Position numbers and translations under genes: made by a program
Notes under the pieces: model-generated
Seen by the model: the letters and a program-made list of their open reading frames with translations, nothing else
Databases searched by the model: none
Told to the model about the DNA's origin: nothing
NCBI GenBank assembly: GCA_963752285.1
Contig: CAVVXN010000005.1
Span: 192,001-256,000 of the forward strand
Reading direction: 5' to 3'
Source of the DNA: an uncultured Planctomycetota bacterium
Lineage (GTDB): Bacteria; Planctomycetota; PLA2; JAEUHO01
Length of the DNA: 64,000 bases
In this document: piece by piece, positions 44,490 through 53,114 of the stretch
Layout of the letters: the number at the start of each line of letters is the position of its first letter
Position numbering within the stretch: the first letter of the stretch is position 1

Positions 44490-44596
44490 GAGGCCAGTTC
44501 GCGGCCCTTCCTCCTCCTTGCGTGCATTCGCACGCGGCGTCGTCGTCATGGCCACTCCTTTGGCCTCTCAGCGCGCCGGTTGCGTGCGGACGTTTG

Positions 44597-45372
44597 GGCG
44601 GCGTGGGCTCGCGGGGCCGCCTTTGGCGGCGCCGCATCGCGCGGAGGGGGCGTGCGCTCGCGGCGTCGGCCTTCGGCCTCGCCGCGTTGCGGGGGCGGCG
44701 TGGGCTCGCGGGGCCGCCTTTGGCGGCGCCGCATCGCGCGGAGGGGGCGTGCGCTCGCGGCGTCGGCCTTCGGCCTCGCCGCGTTGCGGGGGCGGCGTGG
44801 GCTCGCGGGGCCGCCTTTGGCGGCGCCGCGTCGCGCGGAGGGGGCGTGCGCTTGCGGCGTCGGCCTTCGGCCTCGCCGCGTTGCGGGGGCGGCGTGGGCT
44901 CGCGGGGCCGCCTTTGGCGGCGCCGCGTCGCGCGGAGGGGGCGTGCGCTTGCGGCGTCGGCCTTCGGCCTCGCCGCGTTGCGGGGGCGGCGTGGGCTCGC
45001 GGGGCCGCCTTTGGCGGCGCCGCATCGCGGGGAGGGGGTCTGCGCTTGCGGCGTCGGCCTTCGGCCTCGCCGCGTTGCGGGGGCGGCGTGGGCTCGCGGG
45101 GCCGCCTTTGGCGGCGCCGCGTCGCTCGGAGGGGACGTGCGCTTGCGGCGTCGGCCTTCGGCCTCGCCGCGTTGCGGGGGCGGCGTGGGCTCGCGGGGCC
45201 GCCTATGGCGGCGCCGCATCGCGCGGGGGGGCGTGCGCTTGCGGCGTCGGCCTTCGGCCTCGCCGCGTTGCGGGGGCGGTGTGGGCTCGCGGGGCCGCCT
45301 TTGGCGGCGCCGCATCGCGCGGGGGGGCGTGCGCTCGCGGCGTCGGCCTTCGGCCTCGCCGCGTTGCGGGGG
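44597..45372. repeat. Tandem array of 8 near-identical 96-97-bp palindrome-rich units (REP/BIME-like)
   Basis: gtgggctc recurs at 44603, 44700, 44797, 44894, 44991, 45088, 45185, 45281; hairpins gccgcc-ttt-ggcggc and gcggcg-tc-ggcc-ttc-ggcc-t-cgccgc. Confidence 0.95.
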
Positions 45373-48104: not shown

Positions 48105-48142
48105 AGGGGGCTCCGCCCCCTCCGCGCCGGCTTCGCCGTCGC
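48105..48142. repeat. Free-standing copy of the 38-bp hairpin core of the tRNA-linked repeat
   Basis: agggggctccgccccctccgcgccggcttcgccgtcgc, identical to the internal part of the 180-bp units. Confidence 0.85.
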
Positions 48143-48644
48143 ACCGCCTTCCCGAAGAAGGGTCTGAACCTCCTCGGGATCGGGGTCGAGCTCACCGTGG
48201 TGGAGGGGGGCTACCGCGCTGCTCGCCCACCAGGACCTCCCGGCGAGCGAGGACTGGTGCACGAGCCACGCGCCGCCCGTCGAGCGGTTCCTCGAGATGC
48301 TCGTCACGAAGTCCCGCTCGGAGACGCTCGCGGTCACGGCGTCGTGGGACCTCGACCGAACCCCGGCGTCGATGAGTACGGCGAGATGGGCTGCAGGGAC
48401 GACTGGGACGTGGATCTGAAACCATAGCTTCCGTTGGATCGGACGACAGGGTTCACACGACGGCTCTCGCGGCGCTCGATCCATCGCGCCAACTGGATGA
48501 CGACAGCCCCTGGAATCGCGAACACCGCCCCATGCACGGCGAGGGCCGACACGATCTGGCGTGGCCGCGGAGCGGATCGTCCCGACCCGACGCGGGCGCC
48601 CTGTCGCCGCCCCGATCCCGCCCGGGGCGCCCGAGGCGCTCGAC

Positions 48645-49097
48645 CTACTGGGGCGCCTGCCCGTCTGCGCCGTACGCGCTCGCGACCTCCTTGCGAACGG
48701 CCTGCGTATCAACACCCGCGCCACGGAGGATCTGGCTGGCGACCCGATCGTCTGCCAGCACGCCCAGAAAGAGGTGTCCTGCGCGGATCTCCGCGTGGTG
48801 CATCCCTTCCGCGGCTTCCATCGACGCCTCCAGGGCGCGCTTCGCGGAAGGTGTGAACGGGAGCTGCCCGTCCGGGATGGGGTCGCCGCCTCGCGGCACG
48901 CGTGCGAGTACGCGCTCGCGCAACGCCGCGCGATCGACACCAAGGCGATCCAGCACCTTCCCAAGGACGGCCCCAGGCTGGCCCAGGCACGCGAGCAGGA
49001 TGTGCTCGGTCCCGATGTAGTCGGTGCGCAGCTCCTGGGCCTCAGCACGTGCGAGACGCATGATCCGCCTGCCCTCGTGGTCCTGATCTCCGACCAT
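48645..49097 (-). CDS. Stand-alone Clp N-terminal (double Clp repeat) domain protein
   Basis: LARAEAQELRTDYIGTEHILL; LPFTPSAKRALE...EIRAGHLFLGVL; no AAA domain follows. Confidence 0.8.
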   Translation of the reverse strand: MVGDQDHEGRRIMRLARAEAQELRTDYIGTEHILLACLGQPGAVLGKVLDRLGVDRAALRERVLARVPRGGDPIPDGQLPFTPSAKRALEASMEAAEGMHHAEIRAGHLFLGVLADDRVASQILRGAGVDTQAVRKEVASAYGADGQAPQ

Positions 49098-49220
49098 GGA
49101 GCCCATCCTAAGGCGACGGCGTCGTGGGGAGCGAACGCGACGGAGGCGGCCCGTACTCAAGCCCGGCTCCGCCACGACCCCGACGAAGAGGCTCGCGCGC
49201 CGCGGGAGCTGGCGCGCGAC

Positions 49221-49354
49221 GAGCGACGCGAGAAGTGTGGTAGCGGCGGTTGGACTTGAACCAACGACCGGTGCCTTCGGCCCCGGTCGAACGACGGGGT
49301 CATGTGAGGGGGCTCCGCCCCCTCCGCGCCGGCTTCGCCGTCGCTACCCCAGGC
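49221..49354 (-). repeat. Displaced copy of the tRNA-Met-linked repeat (att-like tRNA 3' fragment at 49238-49269)
   Basis: Identical to the units at 50715-51254 over about 134 bp. Confidence 0.9.
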
Positions 49355-49628
49355 TCATGAATCGGCCCCCCGGTGTTCGCCACGAAGGCGATGAAATGGC
49401 CCCGGGCGGGCGATCGGGCGGACGCAGGCTGGAGGCCAGACGCCCCGGATCATCCCACGAGCGTCCCCCCATTCCGGACGGCGTGCTGGGACGAGTGCTG
49501 GGACGGGCCAGACCTGCTCTCTGTGAGGTGCCCCCCGCGCCCGGATGCGCGCCGGGACGGGCATCCTCGCGCCCGCGCCTCGACCCCGGAGGGGTACGCT
49601 GGTCGCGACGCCCGGGAGCGACGAGCCG

Positions 49629-50069
49629 GTGTGCTACATGCTCTACCTCTGGACCGATAGCCCCGAGGATCTGGGCGCAGTCTCCCTGCCGGGGGTCCGC
49701 TTCGAACGGGTGACCGGCGACGGAGCCGTCCCCGCCTTGCTCGGGCTCGAGCGCGCGGAGACGTGGTTCGTCGCCTCTGCCAGCGGGTGCTCCTGCACGC
49801 TCCGGCACGTGTGCGAGGAGTCCCTCGATCTCGGCTTCGGCGCGCCCGAGGCCTGGTATCCCGAGGATCGGGACGAGATCTCGGCCACGAAGGCCCTCTA
49901 TGACGTCCTCGAGCGACTCGTCGCCGGCGGCTTCGCGGTCACACTCCACGACGGTTGGTGCGACGACGCGGTGGCGCCACCCGCGAGGACGCTCCAGGTC
50001 TCCCTCTCCGAGGTGAGTCGGGACCGTTTTCGCCTCTTCGAGAACACCGCGTTCCGGCTCCGACCGTGA
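49629..50069 (+). CDS. Hypothetical protein (CxC motif)
   Basis: MCYMLYLWTD...SGCSCTLRH...FRLFENTAFRL; coding-like codon usage. Confidence 0.65.
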   Translation: MCYMLYLWTDSPEDLGAVSLPGVRFERVTGDGAVPALLGLERAETWFVASASGCSCTLRHVCEESLDLGFGAPEAWYPEDRDEISATKALYDVLERLVAGGFAVTLHDGWCDDAVAPPARTLQVSLSEVSRDRFRLFENTAFRLRP

Positions 50070-50190
50070 CCTTCGCTGTCGAGGGCCGTGCGCCCGTAGG
50101 GCGCAGAGGGACACGGCGCCCGCGTGCCGCCACCGGGCGCGGTCCGTCCGTGCCGGGGTCCGGGGCGCCGCGGGGCGCGAGCCTCGTGCG

Positions 50191-50736
50191 TTGCGGAGAG
50201 GCGCCCTGCGGATCGCGCAGCTTTCAGACACCCACGTTGTCATGGACGGGCTCGTCTCTGGGGCCGACAGCGCCCGGGGACTCTCCGTGGCGGTCGCGTA
50301 CCTCGCCGCATGCGCGCCCGCCCCCAACGTCGCGCTCGTCACCGGCGATCTCGTGCACGACGGTCCCGCCGAGGCGTACCGGCGGCCCGCCGACCTGCTC
50401 GGCGGACTCCCGTGTCCGTGGCACGTGATCCCGGGAAACCACGACGATCGTGCGTCGCTGCGCGCCGCACTCCCGGAGCACGCGTACCTGGGATCGTCCG
50501 GGCCGTGCCACTACGCGGTGGGGGACACGGGGCCCCTGCGCCTCGTGGGGCTCGACACGCGGAACGGTGGCGGGTGGCTCGGCCCCGCGCAGCTGTCGTG
50601 GCTCGACGCGCGCCTGGCGGAAAGGGCCAGGCGACCCACCGTCGTCTTCCTCCATCACCATCCCGTGCCGTCGGGGATCGCCGAGATTGACCGGATGGGG
50701 CTGCTCGAAGCCGATGGTAGCGGCGGTTGGACTTGA
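50191..50736 (+). pseudogene. 3'-truncated CpdA/GpdQ-like metallophosphoesterase
   Basis: SDTH, TGDL, PGNHD, LDT and HHHP motifs present, but the ORF runs into the repeat at 50715 and lacks the final GHxH motif. Confidence 0.75.
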
Positions 50737-51254
50737 ACCAACGACCGGTGCCTTCGGCCCCGGTCGAACGACGGGGTCATGTGAGGGGGCTCCGCCCCCT
50801 CCGCGCCGGCTTCGCCGTCGCTACCCCAGGCGTGGGGTCGTTGGCGGCGCGACGGGATCCGGACGACGCGCTCGTCCGAGCGACGCGAGAAGTGTGGTAG
50901 CGGCGGTTGGACTTGAACCAACGACCGGTGCCTTCGGCCCCGGTCGAACGACGGGGTCATGTGAGGGGGCTCCGCCCCCTCCGCGCCGGCTTCGCCGTCG
51001 CTACCCCAGGCGTGGGGTCGTTGGCGGCGCGACGGGATCCGGACGACGCGCTCGTCCGAGCGACGCGAGAAGTGTGGTAGCGGCGGTTGGACTTGAACCA
51101 ACGACCGGTGCCTTCGGCCCCGGTCGAACGACGGGGTCATGTGAGGGGGCTCCGCCCCCTCCGCGCCGGCTTCGCCGTCGCTACCCCAGGCGTGGGGTCG
51201 TTGGGGACGCGATCGGTACGGGCGGGGCCGGCACGACGAATGAAGCGAGAGGGA
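50715..51254 (-). repeat. Three tandem 180-bp tRNA-linked repeats, each ending in the 3' 32 nt (T arm, acceptor strand, CCA) of tRNA-Met
   Basis: tggtagcggcggttggacttgaaccaacgacc starts at 50715, 50895, 51075 and (true tRNA) 51255; exact 180-bp period. Confidence 0.95.
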
Positions 51255-51331
51255 TGGTAGCGGCGGTTGGACTTGAACCAACGACCCCACGCTTATGAAG
51301 CGTGTGCTCTAACCGGCTGAGCTACGCCGCC
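51255..51331 (-). tRNA. tRNA-Met(CAT), elongator type
   Basis: GGCGGCG TA GCTC AGCCGGTTA GAGC A CACGC TTCATAA GCGTG GGGTC GTTGG TTCAAGT CCAAC CGCCGCT A CCA; 77-nt cloverleaf with encoded CCA; G2-C71/C3-G70/G4-C69. Confidence 0.93.
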
Positions 51332-51348
51332 GTTCGGTCGGGCGGGTG

Positions 51349-51377
51349 ACGGTAGCCCCTCCTTCGCGGGCGGTCAA
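51349..51377 (-). promoter_or_regulatory. Sigma70-type promoter of tRNA-Met
   Basis: TTGACC-N17-TACCGT on minus strand, -10 box 17 nt upstream of the tRNA. Confidence 0.65.
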
Positions 51378-51450
51378 GGCGAGCGGGCGGCGTCGGGAGG
51401 TGGGCCGCGCGGGGGGGGGCGGGCCGCGCGCTGGTCGATCCGGCGCGTGC

Positions 51451-52482
51451 TCAGGCCTTCGGGGCTCTCGCGCCGACAGCGGGGGCGTCGGGTGTGGGGG
51501 CGGGGACCTTCGGGTGGGGACGCACGTGGGGGTTCGGGCCCGCGGTCGCCGGCATCTCCGGCGGCCGGACGACGAGCACGGCGTCGCCCGCGCCCCGGTC
51601 CTCCTCGGTGAACGGCAGCGCGGGGTCGTCCTCCATCTGCATCACGAGCAGGGCGGTCCGGTCGTTCGGGCGACGCTCCCGGAACTTCGTGAGGGTCCCG
51701 AGGTCGCCCTCGACGTGGAAGGCGCCGACGACGAGCAGCACCCGCGTGTCGGGATGGGTGTCGCGGTACGCGGCGATGCGACCTCCCATCGCGTCGTCCC
51801 ACAGCGACTGCGCACGGAAGTACGGTTCGCCCCGTTCTTTCCCCATGAGCTTCAGGAACCGATCGTGGTACGCGTCCTTCGGCGTCGACGTGTGGTCGGG
51901 CAGCCACGCACGCTCCTGGGGCGCGAGCGAGGCGAGGTACTCGTCGTACGTGCCCTCGAACTTCCGGTATTCGCTGACGAGGCGACGCGGGGCGTTGGCC
52001 GACAGCACGGGGATGCCGTGCGCCTTCGCGAACTCGACGAGTGGGCCGTGCGTCTTCGGATAGGTCTTCGAACGCTGCGTCTTCTTCCGGAACGTCGGCT
52101 CGTCGAGCTTCCCGGCCAGATAGAGGTCGAGGTCGGACTGCTGGTCCGCCTCGAAGAACTCCATCGCGAGCGCCAGGGGGCGACCCGAACGCGCGAGACC
52201 CTCGAGCACCTGGAGCTCGTAGCGGGCGCCCACGGGATGGTCGTGGAGCTCGCCGAACGCCACGAAGTCGGCCCCGGCGGCGCGGCCGAGGAACGTGGCG
52301 AGCGAGATCGGGCGTCCCGTGCGGCCGTCGTAGAGCGCGGCCTCCTCGGGATGCGTGGGGGTGGGCCGAGGGGTGACCATGGCGGTCGGCGGGCAGGGGG
52401 GGCAGCAGCGCCGCGGGGGACACGCGCAGGCCGTGAGGAGGGACGCGAGGACCAGGACGCCGAGCTCGACGGGGATGCGCAT
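51451..52482 (-). CDS. ChaN-family (heme-uptake-like) lipoprotein
   Basis: Lipobox-like LTAC; FVAFGELHDHP; LAMEFF; AQSLWDDAMG; VGAFHVE. Confidence 0.85.
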   Translation of the reverse strand: MRIPVELGVLVLASLLTACACPPRRCCPPCPPTAMVTPRPTPTHPEEAALYDGRTGRPISLATFLGRAAGADFVAFGELHDHPVGARYELQVLEGLARSGRPLALAMEFFEADQQSDLDLYLAGKLDEPTFRKKTQRSKTYPKTHGPLVEFAKAHGIPVLSANAPRRLVSEYRKFEGTYDEYLASLAPQERAWLPDHTSTPKDAYHDRFLKLMGKERGEPYFRAQSLWDDAMGGRIAAYRDTHPDTRVLLVVGAFHVEGDLGTLTKFRERRPNDRTALLVMQMEDDPALPFTEEDRGAGDAVLVVRPPEMPATAGPNPHVRPHPKVPAPTPDAPAVGARAPKA

Positions 52483-52595
52483 GGCCGGGAGCATCCCAGA
52501 GACCCTCCCCAGGGTCCACCCTGGGACCGGACACCGGGTCGGACCCGCCCGTGGACCGCGCGCCGCGCGTCGGGCCGCGAGGGTACGCTTGGCCG

Positions 52596-53114
52596 ATGGC
52601 CCGGCTCCTCCTCGTCGATGCGTACAACGCCATGTTCCGGCTGTGGCCCGATGCCCCGGCCGACCGTGACCAGGCGCGCCGCATGCTCGTCACGGCGGCC
52701 GAGGAGGCGCTGCGCGTGTCGGAGGTGGCGCGCGGCGACGATCGCGTGCTCCTGGTCTTCGACGCGCATCCGGGAGCGGAGCGTGCGGGCCTCCAGGGGC
52801 GGGGAGGCCGCGTGTCCTGGCGGTACGCCCGCGGTTCCGCCGACGACGAGATCCTCGAGCACCTGCGACGTGGCGAGGGGAGCGCCGGGAACGTCGTCGT
52901 CGTGACCGACGACCGCGAGCTCAAGGGACGTGCCCGCCAGCTCGGCGCCTCGACGGCGAGCGTGGGGGACCTCTTCCGGGGGCCGCGGCGTCTCGCGACG
53001 CCCGACGCCCCGCCGCGCGGGGCGCCCGTCGGCCCGCCCCTCGGGCCGACCGACTTCGACCTGCCCGCCGGAGAGATCGACCTCACCGATCCGGACCTGG
53101 AGGACCTCGCGTAG
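52596..53114 (+). CDS. NYN-domain (YacP/Rae1-like) protein
   Basis: LLVDAYN, LVFDA, SADDEI, VVTDDREL. Confidence 0.8.
   Translation: MARLLLVDAYNAMFRLWPDAPADRDQARRMLVTAAEEALRVSEVARGDDRVLLVFDAHPGAERAGLQGRGGRVSWRYARGSADDEILEHLRRGEGSAGNVVVVTDDRELKGRARQLGASTASVGDLFRGPRRLATPDAPPRGAPVGPPLGPTDFDLPAGEIDLTDPDLEDLA

Follow-up and report, generated by a model that had tools for sequence, protein, structure and literature searches.

A tRNA-Met gene of an uncultured Planctomycetota bacterium is followed by a tandem array of 180-bp units, which we studied in a 64,000-nt stretch of DNA (the window; G000:C5:192001-256000, G000 being the genome that holds it, with 4.6 Mb, 73% G+C and 5 contigs). We propose, with a probability of about 0.6, that this array is a tRNA-anchored cluster of hairpins of the GTAG-tagged repetitive extragenic palindrome (REP) type, a counterpart of the tRNA-linked repeats (TLRs) and RtT of E. 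coli, which would be expressed by read-through and multiplied by recombination. Throughout this Planctomycetota order, tRNA genes of many kinds are followed by members of the unit family, which share one anatomy, are tied to tRNA genes, have evolved in a manner that preserves their structure and are closed by a long-range helix that we call P1. The hairpins of the units are GTAG-tagged REP-type palindromes and not tRNA arms, and it is unlikely that the array mimics a tRNA with an acceptor stem or yields decoy tRNAs. TLR-like repeats and REPs are each known separately; what is new here is TLR-like repeats built from REP dimers.

The gene that anchors the array, tRNA-Met(CAT) with an encoded CCA, lies on the minus strand (51255..51331), scores 70 bits with the Rfam tRNA model and is the sole tRNA that ARAGORN finds in the window. 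Beginning at its 3′ end and running in the same orientation is a repeat that Tandem Repeats Finder (TRF) describes as 180 bp x 3.2, with 94% matches (50715-51286). An earlier reading of the letters of this DNA, made without database searches (the sequence-only reading), had described three 180-bp units, each ending in the last 32 nt of tRNA-Met, and both the TRF array and the tail comparison agree with it, unit positions 149-180 being 100% identical to the end of the gene in all 3 units. It had also pointed to a diverged linker next to the tRNA that keeps the 180-bp spacing, and this holds as well: unit 1 (51075..51254) consists of a diverged 50-nt linker (51205-51254) and then the core common to units 2 and 3, and its 24 mismatches with unit 3 (50715..50894) all fall within unit positions 1-50. 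Unit 2 (50895..51074) is identical to unit 3, our reference for the sub-parts, at 180/180 positions. All of these units are on the minus strand, and the 180 bp hold no open reading frame (ORF) of note.

Read in the direction of the tRNA, a unit is composed of the linker, an inverted tRNA copy, the motif GGGGTAG, a hairpin (H1), a second tag with another hairpin (H2) and CT, more hairpins, and finally the tRNA sequence repeated in direct orientation, T stem through CCA. In unit 3, in minus-strand orientation throughout, the linker holds a predicted hairpin, CGGACGA-GCGCG-TCGTCCG (50860..50878), whose position is often taken in relatives by a terminator-like hairpin with a T run. The inverted copy, CCAACGACCCCACGC (50830..50844), is a 15-nt exact reverse-complement match to the 3′ end of the anticodon stem, the variable loop and the 5′ strand of the T stem, and it forms the 5′ strand of the closing helix P1. 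The REP-type module (50784..50827), delimited by pattern, by folds and by the literature definition, has GGGGTAG and H1 (GGCGAAGCC core), followed by a GGAG tag, H2 (GGGGGC-GGA-GCCCCC) and CT. Hairpins H3 (CCCCG...CGGGG) and H4 (GCC-GAA-GGC) occupy 50750..50776, and 3 nt (CAC) lie between H4 and the direct copy of the last 32 nt of the tRNA (GGTC, T arm, acceptor 3′ strand and ACCA; 50715..50746), which matches 51255-51286 at 100% and supplies, at 50738-50746, the 3′ strand of P1. The GC hairpins that the sequence-only reading had named are present and predicted to fold. It had overlooked the 15-nt inverted tRNA copy in each unit and two further pieces of the repeat, both on the minus strand. 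One is a solitary fourth core copy 1.36 kb beyond the array (49220..49354), made up of the module, H3, H4 and the tRNA tail (117 nt), together with the first 18 nt of the linker; it is without the inverted tRNA copy, and its 32-nt tail is exact. The other is an isolated 38-nt module fragment (48105..48142) that contains H1 and H2 without GGGGTA and matches unit positions 74-111 at 100%.

Across the family, the first tag is a fixed GTAG inside the GGGGTAG motif, and the second, among 55 variants, is GTAG in 35, GGAG in 9, GAAG in 9 and GCAG in 2. H1 is free in sequence and keeps its pairing, frequently under a C(GNA)G triloop cap, while H2 has a G5-6/C5-6 stem and then a T, which stands directly after the C run in 17/17 aligned units and also, by reading, in 61 listed modules. 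One to three extra hairpins come after H2, and the foot of the T-arm hairpin is always the unit boundary. The relationship of both arms to the tRNA of their own locus can be put in numbers: in 26 distinct first units, the inverted copy has a median length of 13 nt (range 6-21) and reaches at least 9 nt exact in 23, compared with 53/564 pairings with non-cognate tRNAs, and the direct tail copy is exact over at least 18 nt in 22 of the 26, against 13/564 non-cognate pairings. At one locus (L081 1098-1360, G003:C286), the tRNA-Met gene is without an encoded CCA, yet the tail copy after the module ends in CCA.

The same design is found behind other tRNA genes. A scan of all tRNA tails of G000 yields two classes, kb-spaced tails, to which we return below, and short tandem units. 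Behind tRNA-Pro(CGG) lie units of 211 + 444 + 444 bp (C5:2005903-2007300, L020), and behind tRNA-Pro(GGG) a 444-bp unit (C4:53400-54124, L021), all with the layout of the Met unit; the 444-bp units carry a structured insert of ~260 nt inside the H2 loop, for which there is no Rfam match. The 149-bp x 5.1 array behind tRNA-Val(GAC) (C5:1142952-1143755, L022) has units with an inverted T-arm copy and one G6/C6 hairpin, without GGGGTAG, and is a simpler cousin of the Met unit. In the congener G001, tRNA-Met is followed by a 183-bp x 2.8 array whose core is 85% identical, and tRNA-Ala(GGC) by one of 184 bp x 3.0, which closes with the tail of tRNA-Ala.

Among 401 genomes sampled across the phylum, the motif pattern matched 20, clustered in a few families, and a looser pattern matched 31/40 genomes of the order, with ~10 matches for a reversed control pattern. 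We inspected 52 loci with their surrounding DNA and judged 49 of them genuine. More than half of these (28/49) have a co-oriented tRNA upstream, at a distance of 38-145 nt from the module wherever it was measured (26 distinct units), and the tRNAs in question are those for Met, Pro (three anticodons), Val, Asp, Ile, Ala, Arg and Gly. Of the remaining genuine loci, 5 are closely followed by a convergent tRNA, 7 are without a tRNA and 9 stand at contig ends, so that the DNA upstream of them is missing. As many loci are single-unit, the array is an amplified form of a common single-unit state. In the relative G013, two 150-bp units are located between tRNA-Ile(GAT) and tRNA-Ala(TGC) (L032 1386-1862, G013:C7), an interval that is normally a short co-transcribed spacer, and owing to this placement these units are very likely transcribed.

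The design is found in genomes of 20 genera, in which the sequences have diverged and the structure is retained. The sequence-only reading had suggested a search for the unit in related genomes, and such a search does show structural conservation, in the form of the G001 arrays, a unit design found across the order and hairpin pairing that is kept despite sequence change. In an alignment of 17 units, which represent 8 anticodon classes and 6 amino-acid types, RNAalifold predicts P1 as a long-range helix in which the inverted copy pairs with the first part of the direct copy, together with the base of H1 and with H2. Paired cells amount to 94.5% in these units and to 83.6% in shuffles, with 0/500 shuffles reaching the observed value, and they fall to 45-63% when the partners are slid. 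P1, in which three pairs have changed on both sides, covaries between the inverted and direct tRNA copies. The H1 hairpin, taken in 55 distinct sequences, has a median z of -2.5, with z below -2 in 36, and the sense strand is more stable than the antisense strand in 53 cases vs 10, with 6 ties, in a set of 69 strings of which about ten were later judged false. Orthologous modules are 95-98% identical, compared with 76-89% for their flanks.

REPs are abundant, and both their spread and their function are debated. In the available text of two papers, a GTAG-tagged REP is defined by GTAG and a GC palindrome with CT alongside (PMC3733652; PMC8266576); such REPs are said there to be known from >80 species in 8 phyla, Planctomycetes included (PMC3733652), and TnpA-REP is described as binding single-stranded REP, requiring the GTAG and cleaving at a CT located 5′ or 3′ of the hairpin (PMC8266576). 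The planctomycete module consists of short GC-rich palindromes with an unpaired GTAG-type tag, both of its hairpins are predicted to fold, and a CT adjoins the palindrome. As in the GTAG REPs, bacterial interspersed mosaic elements and REPINs covered by those texts, GTAG or a degenerate form of it stands 5′ of a GC-rich palindrome with CT on the 3′ side, and there are G.T pairs in the stems; clusters of GTAG REPs are likewise described in them as tandemly reiterated along with flanking DNA, and Verrucomicrobia are named beside Planctomycetes as carriers (PMC3733652; PMC8266576). By analogy, the CT next to H2 is a putative TnpA-REP cleavage site. The planctomycete dimers differ from most GTAG REPs in being head-to-tail heterodimers, an arrangement that is rare according to the available text of PMC3733652.

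The double hairpin is also found in other phyla. A scan of 185,579 species genomes returned at least 124 stretches, and among the matches listed are Spirochaetaceae/Treponema, Myxococcota/Polyangiaceae, Pseudomonadota, Verrucomicrobiota, Acidimicrobiaceae and Streptomyces. The genomes G418, G419 and G420, from Spirochaetota, Myxococcota and proteobacterial metagenome-assembled genomes (MAGs), hold 95, 84 and 48 pattern matches, overlaps included. In these other phyla, the double hairpin (GGGGTAGSG...CGTAGGGGG...CCCCCT) is compact and dispersed, the tip of H1 is hypervariable in some cases, and a co-oriented tRNA is located upstream in only 1/80 of the loci scanned (L098-L177). Rfam 15 has no family for it.

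The tRNA-linked repeats of E. coli have been known since 1978 and are still without explanation. According to the available text of PMC8144298, there are 22 of them at 10 loci, with 1-5 at each; every one closes with 18-19 bp from the 3′ end of the preceding tRNA or rRNA, and no function is known for any but RrA/B/F, which are located between two terminators and produced by read-through. The TLRs include the 178-bp x 3.1 tyrT/tyrV repeats with rttR (Rfam RtT, RF00391) and RrA/RrB/RrF. The sequence-only reading had likened the array to the tyrT-type repeats, and the comparison is apt: as in the TLRs described in that text, the units lie directly downstream of an RNA gene, co-oriented with it, and end in an exact copy of its 3′ end. 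The differences are that the copied tail is 26-32 nt long here and 18-19 nt in E. coli, that the planctomycete units add an inverted tRNA copy and a GTAG-REP dimer, and that some E. coli TLRs are reported there to be made by read-through, whereas the planctomycete array is known here from DNA alone. The RtT model (RF00391) matches neither the window (E <= 10) nor any of five related loci (E <= 1), and no Rfam family covers the units or their relatives, for which only chance-level matches were obtained (Pab19, tRNA-Sec). A literature search found nothing relevant on REPs tied to tRNA genes.

The reading that we favour, a tRNA-anchored REP-type cluster shaped by recombination and read-through, would work as follows. 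The 32-nt direct copies, and likewise whole units, would recombine unequally or slip against one another, which would produce tandem copies and keep them identical; recombinational amplification and homogenisation are suggested by the identity of units 2 and 3, by the different copy numbers in congeners and by the fact that arrays end in partial units. The units, presumably promoterless, would be transcribed only by read-through from the tRNA promoter, for which TTGACC - 17 nt - TACCGT, a promoter-like sequence upstream of tRNA-Met read by eye (51349..51377, minus strand), is a candidate. This motif is also located upstream of tRNA-Met in G001 and is absent inside the units, and a consensus promoter and terminator scan of 49000-51700 called nothing, this site included. 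The sense strand would fold into a multi-hairpin closed by P1, the copied tRNA 3′ end may serve as a 3′-processing or stabilising signal, as proposed for the E. coli TLRs, and the GC hairpins could act as a second terminator or as a block to exonucleases.

Several points weigh against this proposal, and some of them concern the RNA. Read-through and processing would be consequences of a layout that we know as DNA sequence only, a search for positions 48600-52600 having turned up no RNA dataset with this stretch, and the terminator-like hairpin and T run between tRNA and module in several relatives imply that read-through may be rare. The sense-strand bias comes mostly from purine-rich loops, and the G.U count of H1 is only 16 in the sense strand vs 10 in the antisense strand; moreover, such a bias names the folding strand and does not separate RNA from single-stranded DNA. 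The higher identity of the modules relative to their flanks could be explained by gene conversion instead of selection. At 5 loci the module is opposed to the neighbouring tRNA, which a DNA-level element would explain no less well than a co-transcribed RNA; upstream of the module, two of them (L033, L074) have matches of 9-11 nt to the tRNA, and the other three have matches of 6-7 nt, which is background level. The synteny with G001 breaks at the array, so that a role as a recombination hotspot is equally visible.

Other adverse points concern the REP identity. G000 has ~10 module copies and not hundreds, all at tRNA-Met and tRNA-Pro loci, and this is a difference from GTAG REPs that extends to the family, with ~10 copies per genome, almost all behind tRNA genes and clamped by tRNA-derived arms. 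REPs typically flank the gene for a cognate REP-associated tyrosine transposase (RAYT, or TnpA-REP), and our searches with PF01797 (Y1_Tnp) found no consistent link to such a gene: there are matches in 28/41 relatives and in 2/5 high-copy genomes, all of these genomes being incomplete, and none in the element-carrying G001 and G013. The single Y1_Tnp-like (RAYT-like) gene of G000 (C1, around 103535-103858, in the region 101500-105500) is flanked by repeats unrelated to the GTAG module. Those repeats have direct and inverted copies of their own (…CCCGACCCAGATTTTCG…).

A more ambitious idea, which we put forward tentatively, is that the unit is a functional "tRNA clamp", in which a REP multi-hairpin is held between a 9-21-nt antisense copy of the variable loop and T arm and a sense copy of the tRNA 3′ end. 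Within a transcript, pairing of the antisense arm with the tRNA body or with the tail copy could gate precursor folding, 3′ processing or decay. Alternatively, in single-stranded DNA, pairing with the T arm could aim a REP-type element at tRNA genes. We know of no description in bacteria of such cis-acting control of tRNA maturation, and, to our knowledge, long-guide targeting is without precedent in HUH/Y1 systems.

It is also conceivable, although we consider it doubtful, that the unit is a mobile or recombination-prone element that acts as single-stranded DNA, with the GTAG hairpin as a substrate for a Y1 enzyme (RAYT/IS200-like) and the inverted arm guiding insertion to the T arm of tRNA genes; strand transfer would then copy the tRNA tail, and arrays would be by-products of repeated strand transfer. 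GTAG, palindrome and CT reproduce the recognition and cleavage layout given for TnpA-REP in the available text of PMC8266576, and the dispersal of the module in other phyla, with 48-95 pattern matches per genome (overlaps included), is what one would expect of such an element. The module, moreover, always lies between mutually complementary arms, one of them tRNA-derived, whichever its orientation to the tRNA, the unit boundary is constantly at the foot of the T-arm hairpin, and the array marks the synteny break with G001. On the other hand, Y1_Tnp matches are missing from G418, G419 and G422 as well as from G001 and G013, all of them carriers of the element, and the Y1-like gene of G000 has other flanking repeats. 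Different genera share orthologous single units at the same tRNAs, a sign that the copies are old and vertically inherited, and the guides of Y1 enzymes described in the available text of PMC8266576 are 4 nt long, with none of 9-21 nt for the family.

Rather unlikely is the possibility that each unit is a miniature attL/attR remnant of a tyrosine integrase specific for the T loop, which was later amplified. Integrative elements do leave duplications that resemble ours, with a direct repeat of the tRNA 3′ end, variable DNA downstream and a truncated neighbour gene. A tRNA repeat that runs from the T stem to the 3′ end, as the direct repeat of the units does, is reportedly the classical att core of elements with a crossover point in the T loop (Williams 2002). 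The DNA downstream of the array is non-syntenic, with a truncated gene at the array edge, and G000 is rich in kb-spaced duplications of tRNA tails with adjacent integrases. These last, however, differ from the array: the kb-spaced tails of tRNA-Gly, Asn, Arg and a second Met have integrases beside them and cores of 45-50 nt that start in the anticodon arm, and they represent ordinary integrated islands, without the GTAG module. The Met, Pro and Val arrays have no Phage_integrase match near them: of the 12 in G000, the nearest on C5 is ~0.85 Mb away from the window. The units carry no cargo, their structured content is conserved, and, with one and the same module behind at least 8 tRNA types, a separate attP would have to exist to match each of them; nor would this reading account for the inverted tRNA copy or the covarying hairpins. 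Among the kb-spaced tails, that of tRNA-Gly(CCC) occurs at 7 places in G000 (C1 509-64613, C2:8995, C3:15165), with integrases nearby, which indicates tandem or dispersed integrated islands; as some of its copies are near contig starts (C1:509, C2:8995, C3:15165), they may explain the assembly breaks there.

The sequence-only reading had itself favoured processed, CCA-ending tRNA-like RNAs, whose 5′ GGUAGCG... would rebuild an acceptor stem and which would serve as decoys or regulators of tRNA enzymes, and we find this improbable on several grounds. The pairing it relied on is real in the window, where GGTAGCGACGG pairs with CCGCCGCTACC at 10/11 positions, and the minimum-free-energy folds of the Met units of G000 and G001 use the stem; the GGU of the motif can pair with the ACC in every unit with an encoded CCA (16/17 aligned), and there is a weak tRNA-Sec-like Rfam match (18 bits, E = 3.9). 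The rebuilt acceptor stem as a conserved feature, however, did not survive comparison with relatives. In the 17 aligned units, 77% of the cells of the six alignable pairs are paired vs 75.8% after shuffling, with 234/500 shuffles at or above the observed value, and in 24 units the 11-nt pairing gives a mean of 6.58 pairs with cognate and 6.44 with non-cognate tRNA tails, so that covariation is lacking. The motif does not vary with the tRNA: its constant GGUAGC suits, by chance, tRNAs that end in GCUACCA, tRNA-Met among them, and only for these is the fit good. By inspection, a tRNA-Asn-derived unit (L034) has no acceptor-type pairing, and an acceptor-like stem would bury C74 and C75 and compete with P1, which uses the T-stem strand. 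We also tried, by hand, acceptor pairing in the canonical register (GGGGG as positions 1-5), which suits Asp, Ile and Pro, owing to their C-rich 3′ strands, and fails for Met, Ala and Asn. Retron-like (a1/a2 stem and UAGC) and guide-RNA-like readings were dropped on anatomy, since the stem does not abut the UAG; no reverse transcriptase or nuclease gene was noticed among the neighbouring ORFs, in which no search was aimed at either.

That the array is an assembly artefact, or a neutral recent duplication under no constraint, is very unlikely, in spite of the identity of units 2 and 3, the metagenomic origin of the assembly and the breaks at such arrays in the short-read assemblies of relatives, given that independent genomes of 20 genera have the design with diverged sequence and kept structure and that the unit-to-unit joint at which the sequence "goes back" 180 bp (51254->51075) is present in one short-read contig of a public wetland run, weak support that is perhaps not independent, four DNA runs having yielded only low-depth contigs.

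The surroundings of the array can be described briefly. Upstream of tRNA-Met, genes for ChaN-like and YacP-like proteins are syntenic with G001 (window 48600-51350 compared with L019, G001:C4). Downstream of the array there is no synteny with G001, and the window holds a truncated metallophosphoesterase gene, a 174-aa ORF without a Pfam match, a Clp_N protein and a tetratricopeptide repeat protein. The metallophosphoesterase gene (50191..50736, plus strand) has lost its 3′ end at the junction with the last tRNA-tail copy, and its Pfam Metallophos match spans profile positions 1-161 of 191; it is one of two plus-strand ORFs between the array and the fourth copy. A second tandem array, 5 kb from the tRNA array (44596-45372), is GC-rich, with 97 bp x 8.0, 97% matches and small hairpins, and holds no tRNA tail. 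Elsewhere on the contig (G000:C5:851971-852170), ARAGORN reports a 200-nt "tmRNA" whose atypical tag has LGLRA as its end, and this may be a false call.

As for what these observations mean, two phenomena that have been followed separately, TLRs and REPs, meet in one design throughout this order, namely a REP dimer between an inverted and a direct tRNA copy. The unannotated GTAG double hairpin is, in addition, repeated in high copy number in several phyla for which MAGs are the main source of knowledge. Together with its tRNA, the unit offers a testable system in which one can ask whether tail copies are processing signals, whether the antisense arm pairs with the tRNA and whether REP enzymes act at tRNA genes. 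If the tRNA clamp were true, it would represent either a new form of cis control of tRNA maturation or a new mode of targeting by HUH/Y1 systems.

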